A stretch of 64,000 nucleotides of DNA from IMG/VR virus record IMGVR_UViG_3300035698_010959. One strand, given 5' to 3'. Origin of the DNA: a virus. The notes under the pieces are model-generated. The model saw only the letters and a program-made list of their open reading frames with translations, made no database searches and was not told the DNA's origin. The translations under genes were made by a program, and so were the position numbers. Each line of letters begins with the position of its first letter. Positions within the stretch are counted from its first letter, which is position 1. Positions 4,907 through 37,169 of the stretch are shown here, piece by piece.

Positions 4907-5641
4907 TTAACTCCCTTTGTTATAATTTTCTAGTATATTTTGTTGTAAGTTTCTGATGTCTTCTGTTGTATACTTACTATATCTATTATACAACATTTTT
5001 CTAGTTTTGTCAAAGTCTTGTCTTTTTGTATAGGTTAGAGAGCTTCCTGACTGTCTACTATACATACATGTAAATATTGGTATGTATTTTATTTTATAGC
5101 GTAGCGACATTCGTATCCACATGTCCCAATCTTCATGGGTAGACAGGTCTGTATCAAACAATCCTATGTTATCTATACATTCTTTTTTGTGTAGTACAGT
5201 TAGTGTTGGCATTAGATTTGTTACCAAAAGTAATTGTGGATTATAAGGCTGTATAAAGCCGTGTTTTATCTCTAATGTCTTTCCATCTTTGTCTTTTATT
5301 GCTTGCATACATTTGGAATACACCATATCCACATTTTCTTTTTCTATTGCTGTTACTAGCGTATTAAGGTGTGGTTTTAAATAAATATCATCATCATCAA
5401 GATAGGCTATGTACTTTCCTTCTGTGTGTGTTAGTCCAGTATTTCGTGCTGCTGCTGCTCCTTGAGATACGTCATGTAGTATGTATTTTATTCTTTTGTC
5501 TTGTACTAGTCCATCAATAGACTGACCTCCATCATTGACTACTATCACTTCAAAGTCTGTGTAGGTTTGTTTTAGAATACTTGTAAGAGCATTCCTTAGC
5601 ATGTCTGGTCTGTCTTTTGTTGGTACAATTATACTTATCAT
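4907..5641 (-). CDS. glycosyltransferase family 2
   Basis: ISIIVPTKDR, VIVVNDGG, GAAAARNTG, YIAYLDDDD, HEDWDMW. Confidence 0.93.
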   Translation of the reverse strand: MISIIVPTKDRPDMLRNALTSILKQTYTDFEVIVVNDGGQSIDGLVQDKRIKYILHDVSQGAAAARNTGLTHTEGKYIAYLDDDDIYLKPHLNTLVTAIEKENVDMVYSKCMQAIKDKDGKTLEIKHGFIQPYNPQLLLVTNLMPTLTVLHKKECIDNIGLFDTDLSTHEDWDMWIRMSLRYKIKYIPIFTCMYSRQSGSSLTYTKRQDFDKTRKMLYNRYSKYTTEDIRNLQQNILENYNKGS

Positions 5642-6312
5642 TAGAAGTTTAGTTTTCCTCTGAACTCTCTAGCAACAGATGATACTTTACTGGAACATGT
5701 ATTTAGATATTGTTTATATTCTTCTGTTAGGTTTTCATTAGTTATATACCATGGAAGATGTCGTGCTTCATAAGGCGGTTTAGTTCGTATTGCTGCATAC
5801 CATCCCCATTTCATTCCTCTTTCTCTTTCATAAAGAGCAAATGTTGTATCAACAAGTGCCCAATAGTATTTATCTTTACCAACTGATTTTGTTCTATAGA
5901 TGTTTTCCAGTGGCATTATGTCTTTTAATAGTAGAGCATCTTCTGGTAAGTCATCTATTTTTAGAGAGAATCCTGCCTTTGTTATACACTTAAATGATTC
6001 CAAAGCCTCTATAAGATAGTCTACCATATCAAGCGGAACACTTGAAATATCCAGGTCTGGGTCTGTTACTATGAAGTGTTTTCCTTTGTCTCTGTCGATT
6101 AGCCCAGATTCCCAAGGTGCTTTATGTCCATAGTTTATATCCATGTGCTCTATTCTATATGGGCATGCGGTTTTATACCAATCAAGAAGAGGTTGGTAAG
6201 TTGAACAGTTATCTACAAATACTGGTTCAACTCCATCTATTAGAGAGAGCCTATTTGCTATATCTCTGGGCCAGGTTAATTGATTGTATACTATAATATA
6301 TGCTTGTATCAT
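5641..6312 (-). CDS. GT-A fold (GT2-like) glycosyltransferase
   Basis: FVDNCSTY, FIVTDPDL (DxD), VDTTFALY, ARHLPWY. Confidence 0.75.
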   Translation of the reverse strand: MIQAYIIVYNQLTWPRDIANRLSLIDGVEPVFVDNCSTYQPLLDWYKTACPYRIEHMDINYGHKAPWESGLIDRDKGKHFIVTDPDLDISSVPLDMVDYLIEALESFKCITKAGFSLKIDDLPEDALLLKDIMPLENIYRTKSVGKDKYYWALVDTTFALYERERGMKWGWYAAIRTKPPYEARHLPWYITNENLTEEYKQYLNTCSSKVSSVAREFRGKLNF

Positions 6313-6327
6313 CCTTTTATACTTTCT

Positions 6328-6939
6328 TTATTCTGGTTTTGTAAAATACCAAACGACTGATCCATTTATGACAATAGCATCTGGAACAAGCTCACTGACT
6401 GCTCTTACAACTCCGTAGTGTATCCATCCTTCTTCTACTGTGTAATTATTGTCTTTATCACATGCGGAATAAGCAAGATCTTTATTTTTTAGATCTTTCA
6501 TGAGGCATTCACAGTCATGTCCAGATATAATGCCACCTGGTTTTACTTTTGGATACCATGTTTCTATGTCTACTTTAACTCGTGTATATGTATGCCCTCC
6601 GTCTATGAATATTAAATCCATACTAGTATCTTCAAAGAACTTACTTGCTTTAGATGATTCTGAGATCATTACTGTAACATAGTCATCAAAGTTTTCAAAG
6701 TTTATTGTTTCTATAAAAGAATCTAACATTGGTTTATCAAATCCTATTGGATTTATACCTTTAAACCAATCAATACAATATAGATGTTCTTTTGTTTCTA
6801 TTGTATGTGCTAGAAGTGTTCCTGTTGATCCATTTCCCCAAGCACTTCCTATTTCTACTATTTGTTTTCCTATATCTATTGGTGTGGTTTGTGCTAAAGT
6901 AAGTAAAGATTCTTTATCTTTAGCTGATATAGGTACCAT
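6328..6939 (-). CDS. class I SAM methyltransferase (Methyltransf_24-like)
   Basis: IVEIGS..G.ST, DLIFIDGGHTY, KPGGIISGHD. Confidence 0.88.
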   Translation of the reverse strand: MVPISAKDKESLLTLAQTTPIDIGKQIVEIGSAWGNGSTGTLLAHTIETKEHLYCIDWFKGINPIGFDKPMLDSFIETINFENFDDYVTVMISESSKASKFFEDTSMDLIFIDGGHTYTRVKVDIETWYPKVKPGGIISGHDCECLMKDLKNKDLAYSACDKDNNYTVEEGWIHYGVVRAVSELVPDAIVINGSVVWYFTKPE

Positions 6940-6987
6940 TCCTGCTGCGCCTGCTGCTGTGTTTATTATAAGCTATGTTTCCTTTCT

Positions 6988-7674
6988 TTAAGAAGTTTTT
7001 ATCATAATAGCCATACCACAACCATCTGGTTGTATCACTGATCCCCCACCTGATACAATGTTTATAATTTCCCACTGTGATGTTATTTCTTCAGTTGTTC
7101 TTAATTCTGCTATAAACTGTTTGACTCCTGGGAATAATAATGTATCATGTATTGCTATTATTCCATTGTCTGACATTAGAGGATAGATAGAACAGAAGTC
7201 ATTTTTTGCTGCTTCATAATGATGATCTCCATCTATAAAAGCAAAGTCTATCTTATTAGGGCATAGACTATCTAATACTTCAGGAAAGTCTGCGTCTTGT
7301 GAGTTTTTCTTATGTATTATAACATTATCATAGCCTTTTGCTGTTATTCTTTCACTTACTGCTGTTTGATTATAGTAATCATCTTCGCTGGGCCATATAT
7401 CAAATCCATGAATAAAGCCACCATATCCGCTAACAGCAGCACATAAAGCTAATGTTGTATCTCCATAAGCACATCCTATTTCTATTACAGTTTTTGCTTG
7501 TAATATATTGGCAAGGGAATACAATACGAGTCGTTGATTTACACAAGTACCTCCTCCGCCTGTTTGTGTGGTTGTAATATAAGGAAGTAAAGCATGTTCT
7601 TCTTCATGAAGAAGTCCACCTTGCTTTCTGCGTATTCCTTGGGGGTTATTTCTTATAGGTGTTATGTTTGTCAT
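6988..7674 (-). CDS. class I SAM methyltransferase (Methyltransf_24-like)
   Basis: VIEIGCAYGDTT, DFAFIDGDHHYE, GIIAIHDT. Confidence 0.88.
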   Translation of the reverse strand: MTNITPIRNNPQGIRRKQGGLLHEEEHALLPYITTTQTGGGGTCVNQRLVLYSLANILQAKTVIEIGCAYGDTTLALCAAVSGYGGFIHGFDIWPSEDDYYNQTAVSERITAKGYDNVIIHKKNSQDADFPEVLDSLCPNKIDFAFIDGDHHYEAAKNDFCSIYPLMSDNGIIAIHDTLLFPGVKQFIAELRTTEEITSQWEIINIVSGGGSVIQPDGCGMAIMIKTS

Positions 7675-7831
7675 TTTGTTTTTCCATTCTTAGAATATTG
7701 TTGTTTTACTATTTATTAATGCTACTGCTGCTTCTATACTTTTGATTAAATTAGTTTGTTTTTGTTCTTTAGTATTTATTAAGTTTTTTTAGTTTGTTGT
7801 CTTATCATTGTAGATTATTTGTAAACATTTT

Positions 7832-9421
7832 CTATTCTTTTCCTTCTTTAGTTTGTATACAATTATTTAGCATATAATTACCATAGTAGTATAGTAATAG
7901 ATTTAGTGGATAATGATGTAGTGGAGACATGTTTAAATAAATAAGCGCTGTTAGTGCCTCTACTTTCCACCAACTATACCCTTTTGTATTGATATAGGCT
8001 TTTAATTCATCTATTGACTTAAAGGCATTTGTGTTTCTATCTAATGAAATAGTTACATCTGCTCGTTCTGGTTCCTGTGTTCCATTTAGAATTATAGTAT
8101 ATTTTCCATCTATTATTTTATCAAGAGAAAGTAACATACCTGCATGAAGTTTTGCTAGGTCATAATAGATATCTCCAATATCTGTGTTGTTTCCAAAGTC
8201 ATCTCTCCAATCAATTAGAGTGAAGTTGTTATTTGTATCTACTATAATATTGCTGAAATGTAAGTCTCCATGAAATAAATTAGTTGGTACTCCATTACAT
8301 ACCAAATTCCAATCTAATATATTAAGCATTTCATCTGTTGTTGGTATATTAACTTCATTTATACGACAACCGCAGTCCAGTATTCCTGTTTTGTTTCTAA
8401 ATGCTTCTATTCTTTTTAATGTTTTTTGTTTGTAGAAGGTATCACAGAGATCTGAGATATCAACATTTACTGGTTTCCATAATTTATTATCACACCATTG
8501 TAAAAATTTCTTTGTGAGGTTTGGTGTTACTACCTCTCTCATTAGTCTGCCTTGTGCTTTTGTATAGGCTAACCAAGAATTTTGTGATAATATTATATGT
8601 GGAACAGTATCTTTTAGAGCATCTGCTCTTATCTTCATTTTTGATATTACTTCTGTTGATTTATGATACTTTATTACTATATCATCCAACACATATGCTG
8701 CTTGGTCTTTCTTTGGTAGATTTTGATCTCCAGAGTTATATAGTTTACATCTCTTTATAAGTCCTTCTTGACTACCTGCGTCTATCCAATCTTCTACTTC
8801 TTCTGCGTTAAAGTATATGTCTTTGTTTGTTTCCAGCATTTTATTTATGATATGTACATCAGACATATCCGATTCTTTTAGAGCAAGTAGAGCGTGCGTA
8901 CATACCCAGAATACGTTTGTATCTTCTATTCTTACTATACCTAAATGAGTTTTTGCTGTTTCTGTGTTTCCTTTGTTTAGTATATGTGTTACTTTGTTAT
9001 CTTCTATAATGTCTTTGGCATATTGTATACTATTTGTGGTTGGTCCTACAAGTATAGAGTTTCCTTTTAGATTTTCTGGATTATATCCAATAGGAAGTGT
9101 ATCTCCTGCGTGAAAGATAAAAGGCTGTTGTAGTAGTCTTTCTGCGCATGAGATAGACATAAGTGGCCCTGCTGTTGGTCCTTGGTAGTCTATTACAGAT
9201 ATACATGTAATGTCACTATTGCCATGAGCTAGTTCAAGATAGGTTCTTATATCGTTTTCTTTATATCCTACAAGTATAATAAACTTGGTGTCTTTTGGGT
9301 ATAGTTCTATAATTCTTGTAAGCGTTGCTTTTCCACTTATACAAGCCAGTGGTTTAGGTATACTGCCTAGTATATCTCTTAGGCGTGTTCCTAATCCAGC
9401 ACATGGTATAACTACTAACAT
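7832..9421 (-). CDS. sugar nucleotidyltransferase fused to APH/choline kinase-like phosphotransferase
   Basis: N-term VIPCAGLGTRL...PKPL; C-term HGDLHFSNII, LIDWR, YYDLAKL. Confidence 0.85.
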   Translation of the reverse strand: MLVVIPCAGLGTRLRDILGSIPKPLACISGKATLTRIIELYPKDTKFIILVGYKENDIRTYLELAHGNSDITCISVIDYQGPTAGPLMSISCAERLLQQPFIFHAGDTLPIGYNPENLKGNSILVGPTTNSIQYAKDIIEDNKVTHILNKGNTETAKTHLGIVRIEDTNVFWVCTHALLALKESDMSDVHIINKMLETNKDIYFNAEEVEDWIDAGSQEGLIKRCKLYNSGDQNLPKKDQAAYVLDDIVIKYHKSTEVISKMKIRADALKDTVPHIILSQNSWLAYTKAQGRLMREVVTPNLTKKFLQWCDNKLWKPVNVDISDLCDTFYKQKTLKRIEAFRNKTGILDCGCRINEVNIPTTDEMLNILDWNLVCNGVPTNLFHGDLHFSNIIVDTNNNFTLIDWRDDFGNNTDIGDIYYDLAKLHAGMLLSLDKIIDGKYTIILNGTQEPERADVTISLDRNTNAFKSIDELKAYINTKGYSWWKVEALTALIYLNMSPLHHYPLNLLLYYYGNYMLNNCIQTKEGKE

Positions 9422-10092
9422 ACTTCCAATTTTCCTTTTGGTAGAAATTGTTGTTCTAATTGTTTTAGTTGTTCTGATAATATAGTGTTTGGAGCAAATA
9501 GAGTTGAGTTACCAACTACTGCTGTATGTATATTTCTCTGACTTAGAATAGGAAGTGTATTCATTGTTACACCTGTATCTACATATACTACTGTATTATG
9601 TTTCTTGGTCATAAGTGGTGCTTCGTATACTCTATCCATAAAGTCTTTTGTTGGTTTTGAGCCAAATACTCCTGGGGAACATCCCATTATTGTTAGCATA
9701 TCTATTTCGTTTAACAAATGTAATATTGTATCGAGTTTAGTATGAGGTCTTAATGCCAATCCTACCTTCATATTATGTGCTCTAATCTGTTCAATAATTT
9801 GATGTATATCTTTTGTTATTTCTGGATGAAAAGTTACTGAGTATGTTCCAGCATCTGCTAGCTTTTCTATATAATCTATAGGATTATCTACCATTAGATG
9901 CACATCTATAGGAAGTGGTTGCTTTTCTGTAAGTTGTTTTAGGAAATGAATATCTGATCCAACTCTTGGTACAAAATGCATATCCATTATGTCGTAATGT
10001 ATACTTTTTATTAATGGGCTTTTATACAACTCTTCAAATTGCTCTTTAAGGTTGAATAAATCCATACATATAAATGATGGGCTTAAATACAT
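9415..10092 (-). CDS. ribulose/allulose-phosphate 3-epimerase (AlsE-like)
   Basis: LSPSFICMDL..LKEQ, HYDIMD.HFVP, DVHLMV, TFHPE. Confidence 0.88.
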   Translation of the reverse strand: MYLSPSFICMDLFNLKEQFEELYKSPLIKSIHYDIMDMHFVPRVGSDIHFLKQLTEKQPLPIDVHLMVDNPIDYIEKLADAGTYSVTFHPEITKDIHQIIEQIRAHNMKVGLALRPHTKLDTILHLLNEIDMLTIMGCSPGVFGSKPTKDFMDRVYEAPLMTKKHNTVVYVDTGVTMNTLPILSQRNIHTAVVGNSTLFAPNTILSEQLKQLEQQFLPKGKLEVC

Positions 10093-10133
10093 TGTATTGA
10101 TATTCCTTGTTTTTCCAGCGCTGTCCTATACTT

Positions 10134-10162
10134 ATTATAGGTAAGTTTATGATTTTTGTAAA
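10134..10162 (-). promoter_or_regulatory. sigma70/sigmaA-type promoter
   Basis: TTTACA-17 bp-TATAAT upstream of the epimerase. Confidence 0.6.
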
Positions 10163-10210
10163 GTATTTTTATTTAAATTTCTATATATACTGTTATGCGT
10201 ATATCTATAT

Positions 10211-10594
10211 CTAAAATCCACTATCTCTAGTTAGCTCTATAGCTCCTGCTGCGTGTTTTGTTCCTACCTCTATTATATCTATATCTGGTTTTTTATCATT
10301 GATTACTATTCTTGGACCTCTTGGCAATCCCATAATTAAATGATTGTAGGTAATTCCTAAATCTTGTAGTTCTTCTTCAGTTTTTTTACGTAGTGATTCT
10401 TTTCTACCTGTTGTTATTACAATAGTATGTCCAGACCTTAGCCAAGTAAGCATTTCTTTTTGTATGTTTGGTAATAGAATAGGGCATTTGCTTGTTGCTA
10501 TAGCCTGTCCTCGGTGTGTAATTATGCACCCATCTATATCTAAAAATATAGTTGATGGAGTATTTGTTGGTATATCTGTAATCTTTGTTATCAT
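10211..10594 (-). CDS. small HAD-family (capsule biosynthesis-type) phosphatase
   Basis: IFLDIDGCI, ITTGRKE, LIMG, VINDK. Confidence 0.82.
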   Translation of the reverse strand: MITKITDIPTNTPSTIFLDIDGCIITHRGQAIATSKCPILLPNIQKEMLTWLRSGHTIVITTGRKESLRKKTEEELQDLGITYNHLIMGLPRGPRIVINDKKPDIDIIEVGTKHAAGAIELTRDSGF

Positions 10595-10603
10595 GTATGT
10601 TTC

Positions 10604-11155
10604 CTATTCTAAATTAGCGTGTCTGTTCCAAAGTTCTTTTTCTGTTAGGTTTAGCTTTTCTTGTATCAGTCTACCTACAATATCTCCAAATAAATGTAAG
10701 CTTTGGTCAAATAAAAATGTCATGGATTGTGCAGATTTATTATTTGTTAGGTTTACTTTTGTTGGGCAATCTAAATATACTGAGAAGTTACTTAGTCGTA
10801 ATAGTGTTGAATCTTTAGACGCTGTTATTAGTCCTATTCTAGCATTTTTTGTTTTTGCTATTTGCGCTATAGTTACTGGTAGTTTACTTTCTCCTGATCC
10901 ACTGGCTATTAATAACAAGTCATTTGGACCTATTGGTTTTTCAGTAACTGATCCTACAATTTGACAGTTTATGCCCAAGTGTCCAAGGTATTTAATAAAA
11001 CAGTTTAGTGAAAGAAACACCCTTCCAACAGCTATAAAGAATACTTTATCCACAGTCAGTATTTCTTGAATTAGTTGTTCAACTTCAGTTGAGTCTATGT
11101 TTAATATTACTTTTTGTAGTTCTTGTATTGTTTGAGTTGTTAGTTGTTTATACAT
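10604..11155 (-). CDS. SIS-domain phosphosugar isomerase (HxlB/PHI-like)
   Basis: VFFIAVGRV, LLLIASGSGES, QSMTFLFDQS, HANLE C-terminus. Confidence 0.87.
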   Translation of the reverse strand: MYKQLTTQTIQELQKVILNIDSTEVEQLIQEILTVDKVFFIAVGRVFLSLNCFIKYLGHLGINCQIVGSVTEKPIGPNDLLLIASGSGESKLPVTIAQIAKTKNARIGLITASKDSTLLRLSNFSVYLDCPTKVNLTNNKSAQSMTFLFDQSLHLFGDIVGRLIQEKLNLTEKELWNRHANLE

Positions 11156-11197
11156 TTATTTGTTTTTCTTTTCTGTTTATTGTTTTAGTAAATCTTT

Positions 11198-12289
11198 TTA
11201 TTTATATATATACCCTTGAGTTATCCATTCTTCTGGTATATTTGGGTCTATTGCTCTTGCTAAATTAGTGTGGACTTTGTTACGTAACTCAATAAATCCA
11301 TCTCTTGAAACTGTAGGATTTTCATCTATTTCTACTATCTTGTCTTTCCAAAATAGTGGTATATCTTCTAATGTACCACATAGATCTATTCCATTTTCTA
11401 CTACAGATCTATGTGGTTTTCCTGGATGAATATTGACCCATTCTGGGTTAGTATCTTCATAACCATAACGTATTTTTATTTTGTTTTCAAAAAATCCTTC
11501 TGGTATATGTAGTGGCGGACAATTATCTGGAATTATTCCAACATGACTATATCCATCAAAATGTCTACAGAGCTCTGTTAGACTAATAAAGACTATATGT
11601 TCTATAGAAGAATTACTCATTGGAGGTGGTCCCCAATCCATACGTGGCATAAACTGTTTATCTTTATCTGGAAAGGCATTGCTTCGTATAAAAATCCAAT
11701 AATGCATTAGGGCTTTATTTACTATTTGTATTGCATCTGTTAAGCGTGAAGTTCCTTTTAATATTCCAGGTTTATAAAGTTTTCCATGTTCTATATTGCA
11801 TGGAATAATATTCATGGCACAAAATTTTAATACTTCTGGAAAGTGAGAATACATTACTGAACATAACTCATCTGTTGAGTTTACTAGTTCTTGCTCACAG
11901 TTAGTTAACATGTCTAGATTATTTGCTATAAATACATGATCGTTGTTACCTGCGTAAAAAATTGACTGATTATCTGGTAAGTCTTTAAAGTAGGTATTGT
12001 ATACTTCTTTCCATTCTTCTATTAATGCTGTTCTATGTTTATTATAAACAAGGTTATGATTTTTGTAAAGTATTTTTATTTCATTTTCTACACGTTCTTC
12101 TAGATTTTTATACTCTTCATCTAATCCAATTTGTATTATTACTTGTGTCCAAGGAATAGTGGCGTAGCTTGCCAAGGTATATAATAATATATCTACTTTA
12201 TTATAAGAAGGTAGATTTCCTCTTGAATATGCTGGCATAGCCGCATACGTATTTTCTTGAGTTATTTGTGTATTTACAAATAGTATCAT
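11198..12289 (-). CDS. putative GT-A-like protein, paralog A
   Basis: YAGNNDHVFI, ELCRHFDGYSHVG, LEDIPLFWK; paralog of next gene. Confidence 0.6.
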   Translation of the reverse strand: MILFVNTQITQENTYAAMPAYSRGNLPSYNKVDILLYTLASYATIPWTQVIIQIGLDEEYKNLEERVENEIKILYKNHNLVYNKHRTALIEEWKEVYNTYFKDLPDNQSIFYAGNNDHVFIANNLDMLTNCEQELVNSTDELCSVMYSHFPEVLKFCAMNIIPCNIEHGKLYKPGILKGTSRLTDAIQIVNKALMHYWIFIRSNAFPDKDKQFMPRMDWGPPPMSNSSIEHIVFISLTELCRHFDGYSHVGIIPDNCPPLHIPEGFFENKIKIRYGYEDTNPEWVNIHPGKPHRSVVENGIDLCGTLEDIPLFWKDKIVEIDENPTVSRDGFIELRNKVHTNLARAIDPNIPEEWITQGYIYK

Positions 12290-12349
12290 TTATCTATTAG
12301 AAGCCTTTATCTGCTTTGCATATTTGTTCTATTTCTGTTAATGTTGTTA

Positions 12350-13372
12350 TTATTCTTTTAAGAATCCTTTTTCTATCCATTCTTGGTTAACATTTACCCT
12401 ATATGATGTTGCCATATCTGTATGTGCTTTATTTCTCGCTATTAATAGCGCTTCTCTGCTTGGTATGTTTGGGTTTATATCTATATCTTTTATATAGGGT
12501 TTCCAGAATAGTGGTATATCTTCTAATACTCCTTGTATATCTACTCCATTTGGATTAGCTGAATGATAAGGAAGTAATGGATTAATAATTACACTGTGGG
12601 GGGTATGTTTTTCATTTTCTGGATATCCATATCTAATTACAATATCTTTAGTCCAGAATCCTGGTGGGATTTTAAGTGCTGGGCAACGAGTTTGTGATAT
12701 GCCGACGTGTGAATATCCATCAAAATGTCTACATAGTTCATTCTTTATGGGTATATATGTTTCTAAACAAATATCTGCAGGTGGTGGTCCATAGTCTGTT
12801 CTTGGTCTGTATGTATTTGGAGGTAGATGAAAGGTATTCCATGCTTTTTGTAGTGTTTCTTTTCCTATCATAACTACAGAATCTACTCCCATATGATTAA
12901 AGTAAGGATCTCCTCTATCATTTGATAGATATGTATTACTTACTTTCCAAAATAGTTCTGGCCAATGTGAGAACTGTACTGAGATATTTTTATCTGGATA
13001 TACTTCAAATAGTGTTTGTAGATATTCTAGTTCTTCACAGTCTGATGCTAAAAATATATGGTCATGATTACATAAAAACCATACTGGGTCTGTTCTGTCT
13101 AAATTTTTTAAATCCTCTGGAAGTCTTTCTTTCCATTCTTCTACACATGTATTTTGTGATTCATATTGACAACCAGGAAATAGAGATTTTGTAAGCTCTT
13201 CAAGCTCTTGTGCATACGTATCGTGTGGTGAATCAAGAGCTACCCTTATTGTTACACCTGTAAAGTTAATTACTGATAGCCTTGCTAATGAGTACTTAAG
13301 TATATCAACTCGTGTATAGTCACAAAAAGGATGTGGTAAATCTGTTAATCTTGTATTTATGTATAAATGCAT
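12350..13372 (-). CDS. putative GT-A-like protein, paralog B
   Basis: FLCNHDHIFL, ELCRHFDGYSHVG, LEDIPLFWK. Confidence 0.6.
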   Translation of the reverse strand: MHLYINTRLTDLPHPFCDYTRVDILKYSLARLSVINFTGVTIRVALDSPHDTYAQELEELTKSLFPGCQYESQNTCVEEWKERLPEDLKNLDRTDPVWFLCNHDHIFLASDCEELEYLQTLFEVYPDKNISVQFSHWPELFWKVSNTYLSNDRGDPYFNHMGVDSVVMIGKETLQKAWNTFHLPPNTYRPRTDYGPPPADICLETYIPIKNELCRHFDGYSHVGISQTRCPALKIPPGFWTKDIVIRYGYPENEKHTPHSVIINPLLPYHSANPNGVDIQGVLEDIPLFWKPYIKDIDINPNIPSREALLIARNKAHTDMATSYRVNVNQEWIEKGFLKE

Positions 13373-13379
13373 AATAGAT

Positions 13380-14761: not shown

Positions 14762-14771
14762 ATGTATATAC

Positions 14772-19868: not shown

Positions 19869-19870
19869 AG

Positions 19871-21688: not shown

Positions 21689-22862
21689 AGCTTTTTATCC
21701 TCCCAGATAATCCATCGTTTAGCCTACTCATTGCTTCATATAGTTGATCAATTGAGCAGGATGCGTAACTTATTCGTATATTATTTGTACTGTTTGGTCC
21801 GAAGTAACTACCAGATAGTGTTACAACTCCCAGGGTATCGAGTGTCCAGTTTTGGAAATCTATTCCATCCTTTTTTGTATCTTCTATTGAAGGGAATACA
21901 TAGAATGCTCCACCAGGCATTGGACAGTCTATTCCAGGCATATTGTTTAGTGCTTCCACTACTATGTCTCTTTTTTCTTGTAGCTCGTTTCTTAGTTCTT
22001 TTGGAAACTCTGTATCCTTTAAAGCTCCTATTGCTCCGTGTTGTGTAAAGATTGGCATACAAGATAGTAATGTTTGTACAAGTGCGGCGATTCGCATTGC
22101 TACAAGAAGCGGAGCAACTACGTATCCCATTCTCCAACCAGGCATACAATGTGTTTTAGATAAACTTCCAAGTAGTATTGTTCTTTTTTCACATTTATCT
22201 ATGTTACATACAGATTGATGTGTAGCACCATCATATACTATTTCTGAATATACTTCATCGCTTAGAATCCACATATCATTTTCTTTCGCAGTTTTATAAA
22301 GATCATGTAGTGTATCTTTAGAAAGTGTAGTTCCTGTTGGATTGCTTGGACTATTTATTATTAGCAGTTTGGATGTATTATCTTTTGCTATGTTTACTAT
22401 GTCTTTAGTTAGCGTATAATCGTTTTTTATGTTTAATGGTGCGTATTGTATGTTTGTTTCTGTGTAGTTAGCTGCTGCTGTGTATGTAGGAAATCCTGGA
22501 TCTGGACATATTACTCCATCTCCTTTATCTAAACAACATTGCATAACAAAACTTATTAGTGCGTTTGCTGGAGCAACTATTATACAATCAGTTTGTGGTC
22601 TAAATCCATGTGTATTACATATGTATTCAGATATTTCTTTTCTTAGCTCTTCAAGCCCTTGTGAATCAGCATATCCAATATTTCCTAATGCCAGAGATGC
22701 TACTGTATCTAATATGGCATCGTTAGGAGGACTATGTTTAGTATCTCCTATTTCCATATGTATTATCTCTTTGTCTGGGCTAATGATGTTGTTGGCTTTT
22801 TTCATTAGGTCAAACATAGGTTGTCCAGTTAGTTTTTTTGATCTATTTGATATTGTTGCCAT
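21663..22862 (-). CDS. PLP-dependent aminotransferase class I/II
   Basis: INSPSNPTG, LSDEVY, SLSKTHCMPGWRMGY, PGGAFYVF. Confidence 0.92.
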   Translation of the reverse strand: MATISNRSKKLTGQPMFDLMKKANNIISPDKEIIHMEIGDTKHSPPNDAILDTVASLALGNIGYADSQGLEELRKEISEYICNTHGFRPQTDCIIVAPANALISFVMQCCLDKGDGVICPDPGFPTYTAAANYTETNIQYAPLNIKNDYTLTKDIVNIAKDNTSKLLIINSPSNPTGTTLSKDTLHDLYKTAKENDMWILSDEVYSEIVYDGATHQSVCNIDKCEKRTILLGSLSKTHCMPGWRMGYVVAPLLVAMRIAALVQTLLSCMPIFTQHGAIGALKDTEFPKELRNELQEKRDIVVEALNNMPGIDCPMPGGAFYVFPSIEDTKKDGIDFQNWTLDTLGVVTLSGSYFGPNSTNNIRISYASCSIDQLYEAMSRLNDGLSGRIKSFDSFRIHL

Positions 22863-23985
22863 CTAAAATTACCAACTCGTTATTGATTAGTTTTAATTGT
22901 TCTACTATTTCATTACGGTACTGTGCTACGTTTAGTATTACTGCTGTTTTGTTCCATAGTATATCGTTTGGATATTGAGATAAGAATTTTGTGCCATATA
23001 GTCTTTTGTTATTCTTTAGTTCTGAATTATCTACGATTCCTGCTATTTTACTTTCATTCAATCCAAATGATCTTAGTATGGTGTAGAAAATATGTGCTCC
23101 AAAGAAATATATTGGGCAGTCAAGCTCAAGCATTTGCTTGTTTATGTTTGTTACTCTTTCTGTATTTAAGTGTATGTAGTTTGTAAACAATGTTTTGTTG
23201 TATTCATAGTCATTTAGGTTACGTATATGCATTGGACGTTTTGATTTCTTTGTTACATATATATCAGATAATGGGTTATTGCTACATCTTTCTATTATAG
23301 TAAACCCACATAAATTTAACATATGTATTACATTGCTTCGTGTTAGTAGTAATGTATGTTCAAAATTTAAACAATTAGTTGTACCTGTTATAAGTTGGTT
23401 TTCCATATCAGGTATTGCGAAAATATGATAGCCATCTTCTGGTAATTGTTTGTATATTTGTTTAAGCGTGTTTAATGGATTTATTGTATGCTCTAAGAAG
23501 TTACTGTGTACAATTGTATCCAAAGGCTGTGTACAGATTGGCATATCTTCAAAGACAGCAGTTACTCGTTTTATGGCTTTAGTTGATTCTTTAACATGGT
23601 TGCGGTCTACTATTGTCCAGGAAGCACCTTGGTTATGCTGTGTATAGTAGTTAGCAAGGTGCCCTTCTCCTCCTCCAAGTTCTAAGATGTTGGTTGAGTT
23701 ATACTTCTTTAGTGTATCTTCTATAGACTTGTTAAGTGTAGACCATGCTTTTCCTATTCCATCATTGTGGTGTTCTAAATAAACTAAGGTAGGATCAACA
23801 AGGTTTTCTAATTGAATGGTTCCAGTATCTTTACAGATACCAAAGGACATATCTGCACATAGATCTTGGTCTTGTGGACTAGTTGTACATCCCATATATA
23901 CTGGAAAGTCTTTAAATGTGTATAGGTGTTCCAGTTCCTTGTTTGTAAATATACTATTTCGTTTTGTTGTATCTGCTGTTATCAT
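22843..23985 (-). CDS. SAM-dependent methyltransferase (sugar C-methyltransferase-like architecture)
   Basis: FPVYMG, ILELGGGEG, SNFLEH, FEHT, C-term FFGA..VDNSELK..KRLYGT. Confidence 0.8.
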   Translation of the reverse strand: MITADTTKRNSIFTNKELEHLYTFKDFPVYMGCTTSPQDQDLCADMSFGICKDTGTIQLENLVDPTLVYLEHHNDGIGKAWSTLNKSIEDTLKKYNSTNILELGGGEGHLANYYTQHNQGASWTIVDRNHVKESTKAIKRVTAVFEDMPICTQPLDTIVHSNFLEHTINPLNTLKQIYKQLPEDGYHIFAIPDMENQLITGTTNCLNFEHTLLLTRSNVIHMLNLCGFTIIERCSNNPLSDIYVTKKSKRPMHIRNLNDYEYNKTLFTNYIHLNTERVTNINKQMLELDCPIYFFGAHIFYTILRSFGLNESKIAGIVDNSELKNNKRLYGTKFLSQYPNDILWNKTAVILNVAQYRNEIVEQLKLINNELVILDGNNIK

Positions 23986-23988
23986 AAA

Positions 23989-24981
23989 TTATTGTGCTCT
24001 TGAGTAATATACTACTTCTGATCCTCTGCTGTGGAAAGTAAATGGAATATGTGTTAGGTCACTAAGTTCTTTTTTTATGTCTTCTTGGTTATCTGGTGGA
24101 GCAAATAATAATAGAGTTCCGCCTGCTCCTGCTCCGTTAAGTTTACCTCCGAGTGCTCCTGCGGTTTTTGCTCGTTCATATATATTATTGATTTTTGTAT
24201 TAGTTACTTTACTTGATAGGTTTCGTTTCAGTTTCCAATATTCATCTAACAGTATTCCTATCTCTAATATATCATCTTTTGCTAAACATGTCAAGGCTTC
24301 ATCAGCAAGATGTTGTATAATTCTTACACTTTCTCGCTTTTGGTCTATGTTTGGTACAAATGTACTTGCCACTGTTGCTGCTATTCGTTCTATTCCTGTA
24401 TAGAATAACATTAGATGGTTATCTAATTCATTTATTGTATGTTGTGGAAGCATTATTGGCTCTACAAAGAACTCTCCATTACGATTAAATTCTATGTGAT
24501 TGAATCCGCCATAAGCTGCTTGTATTTGGTCTTGACTGCCTACAGTTTCATTTAATACTTTTTGTTCTATGTATATTGCTTCTTCTGCGAGTTGTCGTTT
24601 TGTTAACATTCTTCCATTTAATCCATTAAGTGCTAACAATAACCCTACAGTAAAAGCAGAACTTGATCCCATACCACTTTTTGCTGGTAGATCTCCGTCA
24701 TAATGTATTTCTAATCCCATTGTTGGTAGATTATCTACTGAGTTTAGTACTCCACGAACAGCCGGATGTTCTATTTCATTTATTAAATTACATGCTTCTA
24801 TTTTTGAATATACTACTCTGTAGTTGTGTTCAAAAAATGGAGGCAGTTCTCTACAGGACATATAACAAAACTTATCTATACTTGTTGTTATTACCCCACC
24901 ACCATGTTTTAGGTACCAGTTTGGGTAGTCGGATCCTCCACCAAAAAGGCTTATTCGATATGGTGTCTTTGTTATAACCAT
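23989..24981 (-). CDS. hddA: GHMP kinase, D-glycero-alpha-D-manno-heptose-7-phosphate kinase-like
   Basis: TPYRISLFGGGSD, DLPAKSGMGSSSAF, GSQDQ, GGKLNGAGAGG. Confidence 0.9.
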   Translation of the reverse strand: MVITKTPYRISLFGGGSDYPNWYLKHGGGVITTSIDKFCYMSCRELPPFFEHNYRVVYSKIEACNLINEIEHPAVRGVLNSVDNLPTMGLEIHYDGDLPAKSGMGSSSAFTVGLLLALNGLNGRMLTKRQLAEEAIYIEQKVLNETVGSQDQIQAAYGGFNHIEFNRNGEFFVEPIMLPQHTINELDNHLMLFYTGIERIAATVASTFVPNIDQKRESVRIIQHLADEALTCLAKDDILEIGILLDEYWKLKRNLSSKVTNTKINNIYERAKTAGALGGKLNGAGAGGTLLLFAPPDNQEDIKKELSDLTHIPFTFHSRGSEVVYYSRAQ

Positions 24982-26153
24982 TATAATATATTTAATCTCT
25001 TACATAATTCTACTATTTTGTATTGATTTAGTGTTGGATAGTTACCTATGTAAAAACTATTGAAGTGTAGGTAATCTGTTACTTCAAACTGTTCTGGACG
25101 TAAGCAAAGCCTTTTTAGATAAGGCTGTCTTAGCTGGTTTCCACCACCAGATAATCCCCTACGGTATTCTATTTTACTTTCTTGTAAAACTTTTTCTATT
25201 TTTGGTGTAAGGTCTGAGTTCCTTGGTACGATTGTAAGCGCATAGTTTGAGCTACCCTCTACTCTGAAGTCTGTTTTGTAGTGTTCTGGGTTTAGGTTCT
25301 TAAGAAACAACTTTAGGTTTTGCTGTCTTGTGGTTATTTTAATATCTAAATGCTCTAATTGAGATAATCCAAGTACTGCGTTAAGCTCTGTACTTCTCAT
25401 ATTATATGCTGGATACATAAAGGTAAAGTCTGGTGTTAGATCTGAATAGGTTACAGATATTTCATCTCTCCAAGGCTTGTGTAAGCTTTCTCTTATTAGT
25501 CCATGTGATCTAAATACTCTTGCCATTTCATATATCTGTTTTTTGTTTGTACAGATCATTCCTCCTTCTATTGTAGACATATGATGAGCAAAGTAGAAAG
25601 AAAAGTTAGATATTTCTCCAAATGTTCCGAGTTTTTGGTTTCTAAATGTAGCTCCAGTGCTTTCACAAACATCTTCTATTAGCTTTATATTTCTTTTTTG
25701 TAGTTTATGTAATAGTTTGTTTGTAAGCGCATTGTATCCCATTATATGAGAGATAAACACTGCTTTTGTTTTAGAAGTTATTGCTTGTAGAACTTTATCT
25801 GTATCTAAGCCTAATGTATTTACATTAATGTCTACAAATACTGGAGTAAATCCAGCAAATATTACTGATGTAATATCTGATACCCATGTTAGAGGTGGAA
25901 TAATTATTTCTCCTCCTTCTGGATATAGTTCTTTTAGAATAGCCATAGAGATAATATTAGCTGAGGATCCAGAGTTTACAAATATACTGTACTTACATCC
26001 TAGCCATTGCGACCATTGTTCTTCAAACTCTTCTACTTTTGGGCCATTAGTTAGTCGTGGATCATCTTGCTTTAGATACTCTATTAGATTATCTAAATCA
26101 TCTTTAGATATATTATTTGACATTAACGGCCAGTCTAGGTTTAAGGATTCCAT
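24981..26153 (-). CDS. DegT/DnrJ-family PLP enzyme, ColD-like 4-keto-6-deoxysugar 3-dehydratase
   Basis: VNSGSSAN, EDVCES.GA, SFYFAHHMSTIEGG with His instead of the Schiff-base Lys. Confidence 0.85.
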   Translation of the reverse strand: MESLNLDWPLMSNNISKDDLDNLIEYLKQDDPRLTNGPKVEEFEEQWSQWLGCKYSIFVNSGSSANIISMAILKELYPEGGEIIIPPLTWVSDITSVIFAGFTPVFVDINVNTLGLDTDKVLQAITSKTKAVFISHIMGYNALTNKLLHKLQKRNIKLIEDVCESTGATFRNQKLGTFGEISNFSFYFAHHMSTIEGGMICTNKKQIYEMARVFRSHGLIRESLHKPWRDEISVTYSDLTPDFTFMYPAYNMRSTELNAVLGLSQLEHLDIKITTRQQNLKLFLKNLNPEHYKTDFRVEGSSNYALTIVPRNSDLTPKIEKVLQESKIEYRRGLSGGGNQLRQPYLKRLCLRPEQFEVTDYLHFNSFYIGNYPTLNQYKIVELCKRLNIL

Positions 26154-27070
26154 AAGTTGTGTCTCTCCAGATAATTTAAGAAAAATAGAGTTGGGTCTTT
26201 AAAATAATTTCTTACTACTGTATCAAAATAAACTCTTGCTGCTTTAGCTCTGTCCTGTAATTCGCTTATAGGGGTTTCTGCTATTTTAGTAAGTTCATTT
26301 GCTAATTCAGTTTGTGTTAATGTGCTTGGTAGTTGATAGGCAAATGATGTATCATAGTAGTCATATCCTGTGTATAAACATTCTCCTATTATAACTGGAA
26401 CTCGTGTAAAGTAGCATGCTTCAAATCTTCTTATTGTTCCTATTCCAGCACCTTGTGGGCATACTGCTATTAGATTGTTTATCATTACATCTTGATATTG
26501 TTTACATATAGCTTGATCTACATTTACTCTACCAGACCATCCAGGATTAAATTGATAGTTTGCTTGCAGTTTTGCGAGTCGTAATGCTTTATATGTTTTT
26601 ACTCTTGTATTTCCTTTTACATCCATCTCTCCTTTAAATCCAAAGGATATACTATTAGGTATACTAAACTCTTCATGCATATGTCTTACTATGTATACTA
26701 AAAACTTTGAAAGCGCAGGTCGTCCCATTGCGTATCTATTTTTCCAGTGTATTGGTATACAACTTGAAGTTACTATAGAGTCTTTAAGGTCTTCACGTAT
26801 TGTTGTGTTATTATAATCTCCTTCTAAATCTGCTATATGAAAACGTTTATATTCATTCCAAAATTCCCAATTTTTTTGTTCTATTGTAGGCATGCTTGGA
26901 TTGATTTCTCCCATATAGAAGAACTCAGCATTCCATGGAGATACAGATTCTACCCAATCTTCCATACCTTTTTGACTAAAAGGTGTGCAGTTTTTATAAC
27001 CTGGTAGTGGAGATAAGTCACAGCAAACAGGTTTTCTATTTGGATATAAATACATTTTTAGTTTTTTCAT
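26141..27070 (-). CDS. exostosin/GT47-like protein
   Basis: FKGE...TR, AVCPQGAGIGTIRRFEACY..RVPVII. Confidence 0.7.
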   Translation of the reverse strand: MKKLKMYLYPNRKPVCCDLSPLPGYKNCTPFSQKGMEDWVESVSPWNAEFFYMGEINPSMPTIEQKNWEFWNEYKRFHIADLEGDYNNTTIREDLKDSIVTSSCIPIHWKNRYAMGRPALSKFLVYIVRHMHEEFSIPNSISFGFKGEMDVKGNTRVKTYKALRLAKLQANYQFNPGWSGRVNVDQAICKQYQDVMINNLIAVCPQGAGIGTIRRFEACYFTRVPVIIGECLYTGYDYYDTSFAYQLPSTLTQTELANELTKIAETPISELQDRAKAARVYFDTVVRNYFKDPTLFFLNYLERHNLWNP

Positions 27071-28017
27071 TATATAAACTCTGGGTGTTTTATTTCTCTT
27101 ATAGCATTAAGTGTTTTATTTATTTCATGATTCTTACAACATGTTAGACATGTATTATTTACAGGTAGGCTTAGTGGTATACTATTTATTATAGAAGAAA
27201 ATGAATTATTTTTCAAGTTTCCTATAATATATTCATCTTCTTTCATATGGTAGTTACATACTCTTACGTTTCCGTTATAATCTATTACAGGAGTAAAGTG
27301 TCCAGCATAACATTGTGTGTATGTTTTTGGTTTTCTACACTCGGCAAATTTATATTCTGATAGATATACTTTAAAGTCTTTTGTTTCATAGTCTTGTAAA
27401 TAATAAGGTATGTCTATATCTGGTTGTTGTTTATAGTTATTTACTAATGCTGGTCTTACTTGAAAATAATGTACTCCTAAATCTCGTGCTTGTTTACAAA
27501 GCTCTTCTGCTCTATCTATGTTTTCTGGAGTTACATTTAATGAGATACCTACTGTTGTATGTTGTATATAGTTTGCTATGAGTAGTGGGTCTATAGCTTC
27601 TATGTATTTATCTGTTAGAGATATTCGTATCCATTCAAATAATTTTGGATTTGCTGGATGTCCTCTTGATATTGCGTTTGTAAATAGTCCTTGCTTTATT
27701 CCAAAGTGAGAGGCTCGACTTGAGAAACTATCAAAAGAGGGATGTAATGTAGGTTCTCCACCTCCTGTATAATTAATTGCTAGAACTCCTAATTTTGCCA
27801 TATCTGCTATAGCAGCTAATAGTGCTTCTGTATCTATACTTTCTGTGGAATGTTGATTAGCATAGAAACACCAAGGGCAGTTAGCATTACATACATTTGT
27901 TGGAGAGATTTCTACTAATATTGGTGTTGTTCTACCTGTTTCTATCTATTGTTTTACTCTATCTGCGTGGTAGAATAGCTTTGATTGTGGTGAAAAGCTG
28001 GTTGTTTTATTGTTCAT
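27070..28017 (-). CDS. radical SAM/SPASM enzyme with in-frame TAG at codon 24 (possible pseudogene or readthrough)
   Basis: ATG 28017; TAG 27946-27948; then PILVEISPTNVCNANCPWC (CxxxCxxC), TGGGEPT, SPASM CYAG...GNVRVC. Confidence 0.82.
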
Positions 28018-28744
28018 TTGATGCTGCCATTGTTACTGTTGTATATTTTGTATACTCTTCTGGTGTTCCTATATCATGAAAAGAGGTATTACAAACGTAG
28101 GCGTATAGTAAGTTATCTTTGGCCCATCGTGGGAATATATCTAACTCTAGTGAGTTATATTTATTTTGAGGTATGCTGTCTTCTATTAAATTACGCTGTA
28201 GTAAATAGAGCCCAGCATTAACTAATCCATTTGTATTATCTTCTTTTTCTTTAAAAGCTGTAATTGTTTTATCGCTATCTATGGTAAGTGTTCCATAGTT
28301 TCCTGTCTCTTGTTTGTAGTATGCCGCTATTGCTCCTAAGTAATTTCTTTTTGGCTCTAACAGTTCTTCTTTTATATCATTAATTGATATACTATCATCG
28401 TATAGTGTATCTCCGTTTATAATAACACATCTCGGTGCTATTATTTTATTTAGGGCATTAGCAAGTGCTCCTCCTGTTCCCATAGGAGATAACTCATGTG
28501 AATAGTTGATTGTGGTTCCTTTGTAGTGTGTTCCAATTGTACTATATATTTGTTCTCCGCGATGGCCTGTACATATTATTATGTTTTGTATTCCATTGTT
28601 TATAAAGAAATCTAATTGATGGTATATTAATGGCCTATTTTGTATTGGTACAAGAGACTTGGGTATATCTGGAAACATAGACTTTAGACGTGTTCCCTGT
28701 CCTCCAGCTAATATTATTCCTTGTGTATATACTGGGTTAAGCAT
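28007..28744 (-). CDS. hddC: sugar-1-phosphate nucleotidyltransferase (HddC-like guanylyltransferase)
   Basis: ILAGGQGTRL..PKSL, SPMGTGGAL, INGDT, VNAGLY, SLELDIFP, DIGTPEEY. Confidence 0.85.
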   Translation of the reverse strand: MLNPVYTQGIILAGGQGTRLKSMFPDIPKSLVPIQNRPLIYHQLDFFINNGIQNIIICTGHRGEQIYSTIGTHYKGTTINYSHELSPMGTGGALANALNKIIAPRCVIINGDTLYDDSISINDIKEELLEPKRNYLGAIAAYYKQETGNYGTLTIDSDKTITAFKEKEDNTNGLVNAGLYLLQRNLIEDSIPQNKYNSLELDIFPRWAKDNLLYAYVCNTSFHDIGTPEEYTKYTTVTMAASNEQ

Positions 28745-29690
28745 TTCCGTAATGTTCTTTCCGTATCATGCTATATCCCTTTATTAGTTCTTTTATTCCT
28801 GTATCTAAATCAGTTCTTGCTATGAATCCAGCATTTGCTAATTTTTTACTTGATACAATATAATTTCTTTTATCTGGATCACGTCCAGTTGCTGCTTCGT
28901 GTATGTATAGTTCTGGAATGTACTTCTTTATTTGTAGTGCCAGGTCTTCTTTTGACATGTTTAGAGAATCATTACCTACGTTGTATATATTGTGCGCCAT
29001 GTCATCTCTATGTTGAATACAGTAGTACATACAAGCAGCGATATCTCCTATATATACATAGTTTCTCATAAAATCTTTCTCAAAAAGCACAATAGACCTG
29101 TCTGTAAGTGCCTTTAATACAAAGTCATTTACAAGCAGGTCTGTTCTCATTCGTGGTGACATTCCAAATACAGTCGCCAATCGTAGAGATATAGAGTTAG
29201 AATGATAGGTTAATAGATAGTTTTCAGCTTCAGCCTTTAATCGGCCATAAAGAGTTATAGGAGTTAGTGGAGTACTTTCAGTACATAATAAATTGCTTGA
29301 GTCTTGTGTTCCATATCCACTATTTGTTGTTGGATAGATAATAAGTTGGTCTTTGCTAATAATAGTTGGAGAGAGTAATGTTTTTATAGTACATACGTTT
29401 GTTGTTTCTGCTGTTTGTTTATTGTTATCACAAGCAGGAGCACCAACAATACAAGCAAGAGGTATAATAACATCTTTGTTCTTTACATGTTCTTTTAGTA
29501 AGTTAGAATCTCGTGCGTCTCCGTATATAAAGTTAAAGTTAGGATAGTTACACACACCAAACAAACCTGTTTGATGGTACATTAAGTTGTCTATTACAGT
29601 TACATCAAAAGCTCTATCTAGTAAATATTTTGTTAGAACAGAACCAATATAGCCTGCTCCGCCCGTTATTAATACTTTTGCTTTCTTCAT
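28737..29690 (-). CDS. NAD-dependent epimerase/dehydratase
   Basis: VLITGGAGYIGS, LACIVGAPAC, YGRLK (YxxxK), LRLATVFG.SPRMR.DLLVN. Confidence 0.92.
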   Translation of the reverse strand: MKKAKVLITGGAGYIGSVLTKYLLDRAFDVTVIDNLMYHQTGLFGVCNYPNFNFIYGDARDSNLLKEHVKNKDVIIPLACIVGAPACDNNKQTAETTNVCTIKTLLSPTIISKDQLIIYPTTNSGYGTQDSSNLLCTESTPLTPITLYGRLKAEAENYLLTYHSNSISLRLATVFGMSPRMRTDLLVNDFVLKALTDRSIVLFEKDFMRNYVYIGDIAACMYYCIQHRDDMAHNIYNVGNDSLNMSKEDLALQIKKYIPELYIHEAATGRDPDKRNYIVSSKKLANAGFIARTDLDTGIKELIKGYSMIRKEHYGNA

Positions 29691-32988: not shown

Positions 32989-32997
32989 TATAAGTTT

Positions 32998-37167: not shown

Positions 37168-37169
37168 GT

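Follow-up and report, generated by a model that had tools for sequence, protein, structure and literature searches.

A phage-owned island for rare-sugar synthesis and glycosyl transfer in a jumbo phage genome, with predicted heptose-tailoring enzymes and a possible virion target

What would a bacteriophage do with some 25 kb of genes for making and transferring sugars, are such genes its own, and onto which acceptor might the sugars be placed? These questions are raised by a stretch of 64,000 nucleotides (hereafter the window), which is the first 64 kb of the 142,839-bp IMG/VR record IMGVR_UViG_3300035698_010959 (G000), a viral genome estimated to be 72% complete. Between positions 4907 and 29690 it contains a nearly gapless run of 26 open reading frames (ORFs), all on the minus strand, which we term the island. 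Assignment of these ORFs by means of Pfam, NCBIfam, PHROGs, the ESM Atlas and one AlphaFold model (Table 1) gives nine glycosyltransferase-like proteins, two nucleotidyltransferases (28007-28744 and the N-terminal half of 7832-9421), two kinases (a GHMP kinase, 23989-24981, and the APH-like C-terminal half of 7832-9421), four epimerase or oxidoreductase-type enzymes (ORFs starting at 28737, 17896, 15855 and 9415), one thiamine diphosphate (ThDP) enzyme, two pyridoxal phosphate (PLP) enzymes (ORFs starting at 21663 and 24981), two radical SAM genes, one with an in-frame TAG, and three methyltransferases. A preliminary description, made from the letters alone, had seen here 25 contiguous, co-oriented genes for rare-sugar nucleotide synthesis with many soluble glycosyltransferases, set between phage genes. 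Contiguity and common orientation stand, the count becomes 26, the inventory was right in substance, and the enzyme families agree with the proposed activities; on the two sides lie RecU, a weakly matching sigma-like protein, a DnaB-like helicase and virion proteins. We tentatively read the island, with somewhat less than even confidence, as a phage-owned and self-contained glycan factory whose product would go onto a soluble acceptor, virion proteins of the phage itself being the most probable one. Comparison of the window with the genome record shows five single-base differences (168, 3996, 12627, 13280 and 35050).

The ownership of the island is supported by both its composition and its position. 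GC content stays between 0.31 and 0.36, GC and strand skews run flat over the island borders, and the tetranucleotide correlation with the genome is 0.958-0.972 within the island and 0.889-0.969 outside it. Two relatives, G050 (211 kb, 98% complete) and G051 (217 kb, 93% complete), which encode a virion protein 38-39% identical over its full length, carry cognate islands of about 16 and 23 genes at the same position, from the RecU gene to the DnaB-like gene. The synteny that the preliminary description had proposed to look for is thereby found, and the chimeric join with a host lipopolysaccharide (LPS) locus of which it had warned is not: the data support a phage-owned island. Proteins of the island are also present on contigs of up to 226 kb. 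Gene order differs in the two cognate islands and their content differs in part from that of the present phage. The common core comprises the Cj1427-like short-chain dehydrogenase/reductase (SDR), the HddC-like nucleotidyltransferase, the GHMP kinase, the HAD phosphatase, the phrog_14945 glycosyltransferase, a CgeB-like glycosyltransferase, the B12-radical SAM enzyme, the ThDP enzyme and the ColD-like enzyme, with identities of 26-56%, similar to those of the flanking core genes. As the core is about as divergent as its flanks and the position is fixed, the island is old in this lineage and plastic, evolving by gene shuffling and exchange. Sequence comparison places the phage among jumbo phages that are distant relatives of Bacillus phage 0305phi8-36, and neither the island nor the virion module gave a megablast match in cultured phages.

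Which sugars might be made is best approached through the larger part of the island, about 14772 to 29690, which we call module H and which is predicted to carry out GDP-heptose-type tailoring. Homologs of its Cj1427-like SDR occur in 69 IMG/VR loci at 44-56% identity. The ColD-type protein has a DegT fold, and a His-His pair in it aligns with the His-His of ColD (PDB 2gms), where aminotransferases have the catalytic Schiff-base lysine. The GDP-fucose-synthase-like protein matches both GDP-L-fucose synthases and C. jejuni heptose C4-reductases in PDB. The C4-dehydrogenase, RmlC-fold epimerase and C4-reductase of C. jejuni-type tailoring are hence all present, as judged at the sequence level. 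The C4-dehydrogenase and the 3-dehydratase are encoded as a pair both in the island and in the viral loci L028, L059, L026 and L101-L103, and Cj1427 combined in vitro with the HS:5 3-dehydratase yields GDP-3-deoxy-4-keto-heptose, called a novel compound by Raushel's group (PMC10680097).

The ThDP enzyme of module H has as its top PDB match JanthE (8rph; 4.5e-99, 336 bits), ahead of 5ahk (257 bits) and plant acetohydroxyacid synthase (247 bits), and it scores under the acetolactate synthase equivalog cut-offs of NCBIfam. JanthE is a YerE-like, ketone-accepting carboligase (PMC12188165); YerE-type enzymes place an acyl branch from alpha-keto acids onto nucleoside diphosphate (NDP)-4-keto-3-deoxy sugars (PMC9306805, PMC12188165), and transaminases are able to provide the donor or to alter the branch (PMC9306805). 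In viral loci ThDP genes adjoin DegT/ColD-like genes, and in L001 and L002, as in the island, class I/II aminotransferase and B12-radical SAM genes adjoin the ThDP homologs. The B12-radical SAM enzyme has AprD4 (6fd2) as its nearest PDB entry, and the 380-residue methyltransferase belongs to a conserved cassette found in 12 of 80 viral loci. The most economical reading of these relationships is that module H would yield a methylated heptose derivative that is GDP-linked, branched at C4 and 3-deoxy (possibly 3,6-dideoxy), along with a simpler epimerised and reduced heptose. An SDR and a transaldolase encoded 6.5 kb off the island may supply the 6-deoxy step and sedoheptulose-7-phosphate, if they are linked to it.

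The second radical SAM gene of module H, of the SPASM type, was listed as a 243-residue 'SPASM' ORF, but its full-length frame starts at an ATG (28015-28017) that overlaps the end of the upstream nucleotidyltransferase gene. The in-frame TAG is the 24th codon of this frame, ahead of the CNANCPWC (CxxxCxxC) cluster motif. Recoding of TAG was considered as an explanation and rejected; the codon terminates 41 of the 145 ORFs of the genome, and since it is an ordinary stop here the gene is probably an inactive pseudogene, or else the base call is wrong.

A second set of genes, module P (7832-13372), resembles the AfhE/AfhF pathway of UDP-arabinose synthesis in its nucleotidyltransferase-kinase fusion, HAD phosphatase and SIS isomerase, which have an identical architecture there. 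The similarity to RB69 proteins is distant and detectable by BLASTP (1e-6, 6e-4, 0.02 and 0.011), and the substrate could be a pentose, hexulose or heptose phosphate. The small HAD phosphatase gene, which is kept in G050 and G051, adjoins a gene of the coupled GT-A-like family in 27 of 80 viral loci. This GT-A-like family, represented by the tandem paralogs 11198-13372, comprises 895 clusters at 50% identity, is sharply bounded, and has the invariant residues D117-H118, H243 and D245. An AlphaFold 2 model (pLDDT 91) shows a GT-A fold, with MGAT2, GnT-I, hyaluronan synthase, SpsA and Mimivirus R699 as neighbors at Z of about 10. A nucleotidyltransferase-kinase homolog lies within 10 kb of the GT-A-like gene in 35 of 80 viral loci and in all nine cellular loci, the latter belonging to DPANN archaea, candidate phyla radiation (CPR) bacteria, SAR116 and Victivallales. 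Four of the five large viral carriers tested are T4-like, and marine T4-like phages are among the viruses that have the coupled genes. Module P appears to be an accessory cassette added onto the lineage core, because it is missing from G050. As further observations, some members of the GT-A-like family are fused to GT2, methyltransferase or tetratricopeptide repeat (TPR) domains, and two of the five base differences between window and record fall within the paralog 12350-13372.

As to the remaining transferases, the two CgeB-like paralogs share 40% identity, and homologs of the possible GT47-like protein (33-36% identity) adjoin ColD-like genes in the loci L102, L103 and L077. Searches with the GT-A-like and CgeB-like proteins by tblastn against cultured phages returned nothing useful.

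Table 1. Predicted functions and positions of island genes and of neighboring features in the window
Feature	Position	Strand	Evidence
GT2 glycosyltransferase	4907-5641	-	Pfam 7e-30
Small viral GT2-like GT-A glycosyltransferase	5641-6312	-	Atlas structure, TM 0.8-0.9
Two Methyltransf_24 (TylF-like) O-methyltransferases (ORFs from 6328 and 6988)	6328-7674	-	PF13578 6e-20, 8e-20
Bifunctional nucleotidyltransferase (N-terminal) and APH-like sugar kinase (C-terminal), AfhE architecture	7832-9421	-	BLASTP RB69 gp52 1e-6, gp53 6e-4
Ribulose-phosphate/allulose-6-phosphate 3-epimerase family	9415-10092	-	PF00834 4e-41; similar scores for AlsE and Rpe models
Small HAD phosphatase (AfhF/GmhB-like role)	10211-10594	-	weak HAD-IIIA matches
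SIS phosphosugar isomerase (HxlB-like)	10604-11155	-	TIGR03127 143.8 bits, cut-off 160 bits
Tandem GT-A-fold paralogs, family without Pfam model	11198-12289, 12350-13372	-	35% identical to each other
Phage glycosyltransferase phrog_14945	13380-14072	-	E 1e-35; kept in G050 and G051
Small GT2-like GT-A glycosyltransferase	14072-14761	-	Atlas neighbors GT2 families, TM 0.75-0.81
CgeB-like glycosyltransferase	14772-15854	-	PF13524
RmlC-fold 3,5-epimerase, GDP-heptose type	15855-16382	-	C. jejuni GDP-heptose epimerases 7ang, 7m14, 8db5 top in PDB, 2e-33
B12-binding radical SAM enzyme	16330-17895	-	PF02310, PF04055; CPYNCYFC motif at residue 229
GDP-fucose-synthase-like C4-reductase/epimerase	17896-18876	-	NCBIfam Fcl 2e-47
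CgeB-like glycosyltransferase	18876-19868	-	PF13524
YerE/JanthE-like ThDP carboligase (predicted sugar C-branching)	19871-21688	-	all three ThDP domains
Class I/II aminotransferase	21663-22862	-	PF00155 1e-55
S-adenosylmethionine-dependent methyltransferase	22843-23985	-	PF13489 3e-11; phrog_24523, phrog_37107
GHMP sugar kinase, HddA-like	23989-24981	-	PF00288, PF08544
ColD-type pyridoxamine phosphate/PLP-dependent sugar 3-dehydratase	24981-26153	-	PDB 2gms (ColD) 1.6e-50
Possible GT47/RXYLT1-like glycosyltransferase (weak)	26141-27070	-	Pfam E 1.4e-3, 8.9e-3
Radical SAM-SPASM gene, in-frame TAG at 27946-27948	27070-28017	-	SPASM PF13186
Sugar-1-phosphate nucleotidyltransferase, HddC/ManC-like (GDP-sugar)	28007-28744	-	PF00483 1e-31
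SDR, probable GDP-heptose C4-dehydrogenase (Cj1427-like)	28737-29690	-	PDB 6vo6/6vo8, 3.4e-92
Sigma region 4, weak match	1383-2093		
RecU	4181-4690		PF03838
DnaB-like helicase	30459-31496		
Outlying SDR (4,6-dehydratase-like) and FSA/TalC transaldolase	36166-37808	-	phrog_540, phrog_440; TIGR00875 1.6e-66
Virion proteins	44076-52987		

Starting from gene content, enzyme family relationships, island position and missing export genes, all of them directly established, we infer the sugar structures and the acceptor as follows. The GHMP kinase would phosphorylate a heptose phosphate at C1 and the HddC-like enzyme would activate it as a GDP-sugar, upon which the Cj1427-like dehydrogenase would oxidize C4 and the ColD-type enzyme would take off the 3-hydroxyl. 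The 4-keto intermediate could then follow two routes, being either epimerised and reduced by the RmlC-like and Fcl-like enzymes, or given a C-branch from an alpha-keto acid by the YerE/JanthE-like ThDP enzyme. The class-I aminotransferase may provide the keto acid or aminate the branch, and the B12-radical SAM enzyme and the methyltransferases would perform further tailoring. In module P a sugar phosphate would pass, as in the AfhE/AfhF pathway, from the isomerase/epimerase to the kinase, the HAD phosphatase and the nucleotidyltransferase, with the resulting NDP-sugar used by the adjacent GT-A-like paralogs. Assembly of the glycan would finally fall to the nine soluble glycosyltransferases, working in the cytoplasm on a soluble acceptor. 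At its boldest the proposal is that a complex heteroglycan is assembled in the cytoplasm, with neither lipid carrier nor exporter, and attached to the phage's own virion; that it contains a C-branched, methylated, 3-deoxy-heptose-derived higher sugar so far unseen in nature and a second sugar delivered by a hitherto unrecognised GT-A family; and that the island evolves as a hypervariable 'serotype' locus at a fixed position. Taken in its entirety this is rather unlikely; were it true, the island would be a phage counterpart of giant-virus fibril glycosylation.

Where the glycan would go is addressed chiefly by what the genome does not encode. A hydropathy scan found no ORF with at least four hydrophobic segments in the 143-kb record or in the islands of the relatives, and such an ORF lies nearby in only five of 80 viral loci. 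Searches for the Bac_transf (PF02397), WecA/MraY (PF00953) and Wzx (PF01943) families, in which the positive controls matched, found no member in G000 or in five carriers of at least 92% completeness; for exporters, the scan yielded no multi-pass membrane protein, the ABC and Wzy families not having been searched by hidden Markov model. The claim in the preliminary description that export, priming and membrane functions are missing thus holds well beyond the window. Since neither priming transferases nor flippases nor multi-pass membrane proteins turned up, a soluble acceptor is favored. The same description had offered virion protein or DNA as that acceptor; this is still an inference, and DNA has become less likely.

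A virion protein or another soluble protein as the acceptor has in our estimate a little under an even chance. A glycosyltransferase gene of the GT-B type lies inside the baseplate operon and is kept in both relatives at 53-57% identity. TPR fusions are found among relatives of three of the island glycosyltransferase families. The CgeB-like family has a role in Bacillus spore-surface maturation, as its Pfam name also records. The conserved baseplate gene, the TPR fusions and the CgeB-like family are hints that lean to a protein or virion acceptor. The virion proteins are rich in Ser and Thr, and not distinctively so. In G051 the baseplate GT-B gene stands in a 997-residue open frame (G051:C1:42091-45048) along which the matches are split into three pieces, which suggests that this copy holds one or two insertions, possibly inteins.

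Several observations weigh against this reading as a whole. The island lies among replication genes, outside the virion module, and 28% of the genome is outside the 143-kb record. Enrichment of a Ser/Thr-Gly-Ser acceptor motif ([ST]-G-S), tried as a lead to the virion, was rejected as not significant (33 observed against 25.9 +/- 5 expected). Within the pathway, the top NCBIfam models of the nucleotidyltransferase and the GHMP kinase are HddC at 137 bits, under its 300-bit cut-off, and HddA at 127 bits, under its 600-bit cut-off; the SIS protein is nearer to HxlB than to GmhA; and one radical SAM gene contains a stop codon. PDB 6vo6, named by its depositors 'putative sugar-nucleotide epimerase/dehydratase', is probably Cj1427. 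Lastly, the characterised enzymes that come nearest belong to capsule and O-antigen pathways, and a unit built by the phage could be primed and exported by the host.

This last point is the core of a rival explanation, the remodelling of the host envelope, in which NDP-sugars of the phage would be placed onto lipid- or wall-linked glycans of the host (capsule, S-layer glycan, teichoic acid or LPS), with the host priming, flipping and ligating, and with a block to superinfection or a changed cell surface during infection as the effect. The nearest characterised homologs, namely ColD, YerE and the heptose enzymes of C. jejuni, point this way, as does the usual interpretation of S-SCSM2R (PMC12801897) and of clusters of the P-SSM2 type (PMC7824862), and in the DPANN, CPR and SAR116 genomes with the coupled GT-A-like and nucleotidyltransferase-kinase genes a cell-surface product is the natural guess. 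Yet the priming transferase, flippase, polymerase and ligase, and multi-pass membrane proteins in general, are missing not just from the island but from the 143-kb record and five near-complete carriers; nine transferases would need to fit into a host pathway; and the export specificities of phage and host would have to match in every relative despite the differing content of the islands. No integrase or lysogeny module turned up either, though none was specifically searched for. On balance we regard envelope remodelling as rather unlikely.

Modification of DNA has to be weighed on account of module P, which, with some of the transferases, might glycosylate a hydroxylated pyrimidine as RB69, DLP3 and HY126 do with UDP-arabinose. 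The architecture is that of AfhE, AfhF and an arabinose-5-phosphate isomerase (PMC13326640), and the RB69 match of the kinase domain at 1e-6 is weak but real. A distant homolog in Enterococcus phage 9183 adjoins a thymidylate synthase homolog, a dTMP kinase and a dUTPase, genes for replication and nucleotide metabolism (DnaB-like, dCMP deaminase and a dATP/dGTP diphosphohydrolase domain) flank the island, and the part of the genome outside the record could hold further enzymes. Against this, no ThyA homolog (PF00303) or C5-methylase is found in the 143 kb, which make up 72% of the genome; a search of the same 143 kb for Tet/JBP was also negative and carries little weight, since no control genome matched. 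In G050 the island stands without any ThyA homolog, the sole ThyA match of G051 is weak and lies 12 kb outside its island, and the complete T4-like carriers G022 and G032 are without ThyA. Moreover, the coupled transferase has a GT-A fold, where DNA arabinosyltransferases are GT-B enzymes, and nine transferases with heavily tailored sugars go far beyond any known DNA glycan. The absence of ThyA and C5-methylase, the retention of the island in G050 and the occurrence of the couple in DPANN archaea and CPR bacteria together make a DNA target less likely, and we consider it improbable.

Still more improbable in our estimate is a diffusible product, either a glycosylated small molecule or a free oligosaccharide acting on the host or on competitors. 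The tailoring of natural-product sugars typically employs ThDP, aminotransferase, B12-radical SAM, O-methyltransferase and deoxysugar enzymes, and a role of this kind was proposed by Iyer and colleagues for a second cyanophage cluster (PMC7824862). The island lacks aglycone-forming enzymes (polyketide synthase, non-ribosomal peptide synthetase or cyclase) and a transporter, and its nine glycosyltransferases point instead to a polymer or a multi-sugar glycan.

Some genes next to the island deserve description in their own right. Directly upstream of it, a minus-strand ORF (29717-30529) encodes a 270-residue protein that has a single membrane anchor at its N-terminus and a long stretch rich in Thr, Glu and Lys; the ORF overlaps the GTG-started DnaB-like ORF by 71 nucleotides, and no family was found for it. 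This protein could be the acceptor, or be unrelated. The minus-strand ORF 33169-33984 joins a dATP/dGTP diphosphohydrolase N-terminal domain (PF18909, 9e-33) to an HNH endonuclease; an assignment as an amidase was rejected in view of that domain. It adjoins a dCMP deaminase (32239-33027) with an extra N-terminal segment of about 100 residues. A Z-genome pathway, which PF18909 might have indicated, was also rejected, as no PurZ homolog is found in the 143 kb. Farther away, a minus-strand ORF at 39427-39885 has a cyclic-phosphate processing receiver domain (PF20274, 4e-16), unusual for a phage, and the distal part of a 757-residue tailspike-like gene (58001-60000) has a GC content of 0.42 against 0.33 elsewhere.

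If the glycan does coat the virion, large environmental phages would carry a variable sugar coat of their own, with effects on host recognition, stability, evasion of immunity or grazing, and the design of phage therapy. The island also offers, in compact form, enzymes for making rare GDP-heptose derivatives as well as sugar-branching ThDP carboligases, and in it a C4-dehydrogenase and a 3-dehydratase are paired naturally, a combination shown so far in vitro only (PMC10680097). The GT-A-like family with its AfhE-like nucleotidyltransferase-kinase, found in phages, DPANN archaea and CPR bacteria, constitutes a testable new glycosylation pathway, and the conserved position with variable content over three relatives provides a natural comparative system.

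Large glycan islands of phages are already known, and the hint in the preliminary description that known phage virion glycosylation systems use only a few transferases overstated the novelty of the present one: published cyanomyovirus clusters have 15-22 sugar genes and up to 13 glycosyltransferases, P-SSM2 having a 15-gene 'LPS' cluster and S-SCSM2R 22 genes of which 13 encode glycosyltransferases, and these sugar and glycosyltransferase clusters of jumbo cyanomyoviruses were read, without tests, as modifying the host surface (PMC7824862, PMC12801897). Like them, the island combines SDRs, cupin epimerases, kinases, nucleotidyltransferases and many paralogous glycosyltransferases, varies among relatives and has a putative target; several of its cassettes have homologs in T4-like marine phage contigs. 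It differs from them in its lineage, that of distant relatives of 0305phi8-36, and in its Cj1427-like and ColD-type enzymes, YerE-like ThDP enzyme, B12-radical SAM enzyme, AfhE-like module and GT-A-like family. With the capsular GDP-heptose pathway of C. jejuni (PMC10680097) it shares homologs of the dehydrogenase, epimerase, reductase, 3-dehydratase, kinase and guanylyltransferase; unlike that pathway it is phage-borne, lacks capsule export genes and a recognisable GmhA-type isomerase, has HddA and HddC matches below equivalog cut-offs, and adds ThDP, aminotransferase and radical SAM steps. As in YerE-type synthesis of yersiniose, erwiniose and caryophyllose (PMC9306805, PMC12188165), a JanthE-like carboligase adjoins enzymes for an NDP-3-deoxy-4-keto sugar, whereas here a GDP-linked heptose probably takes the place of CDP-3,6-dideoxyglucose, and no YerF-type reductase is assigned.

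The AfhE/AfhF pathway for UDP-arabinose in RB69, DLP3 and HY126 (PMC13326640) is paralleled by the SIS isomerase, the nucleotidyltransferase-kinase fusion and the small HAD phosphatase; the sequences are only distantly related, no 5-hydroxy-dCMP synthase was found, the transferases are GT-A-like and not GT-B, and, the SIS protein being HxlB-like, the sugar of module P may not be arabinose. O-glycosylation of mycobacteriophage virions of the Che8 type, proven and carried out by few transferases according to later accounts of Freeman 2023 (in PMC12619734 and PMC12801897), likewise depends on phage-encoded soluble glycosyltransferases. By those accounts its virion protein target is demonstrated, and it draws on host sugar nucleotides, unlike the nine to ten transferases and full rare-sugar synthesis seen here. 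In Mimivirus, fibril clusters decorate the particle with sugars made by the virus (viosamine, bacillosamine and rhamnose) through soluble transferases, with no cellular export machinery; that is a giant virus of eukaryotes with other sugars, and the similarity lies in one glycosyltransferase fold, that of R699. Specific to the present island are the natural combination of heptose C4-dehydrogenase, 3-dehydratase, YerE-like branching enzyme and B12-radical SAM enzyme, the coupling of an AfhE-like module to a new GT-A family, and the fixed genome position with variable content among three relatives.

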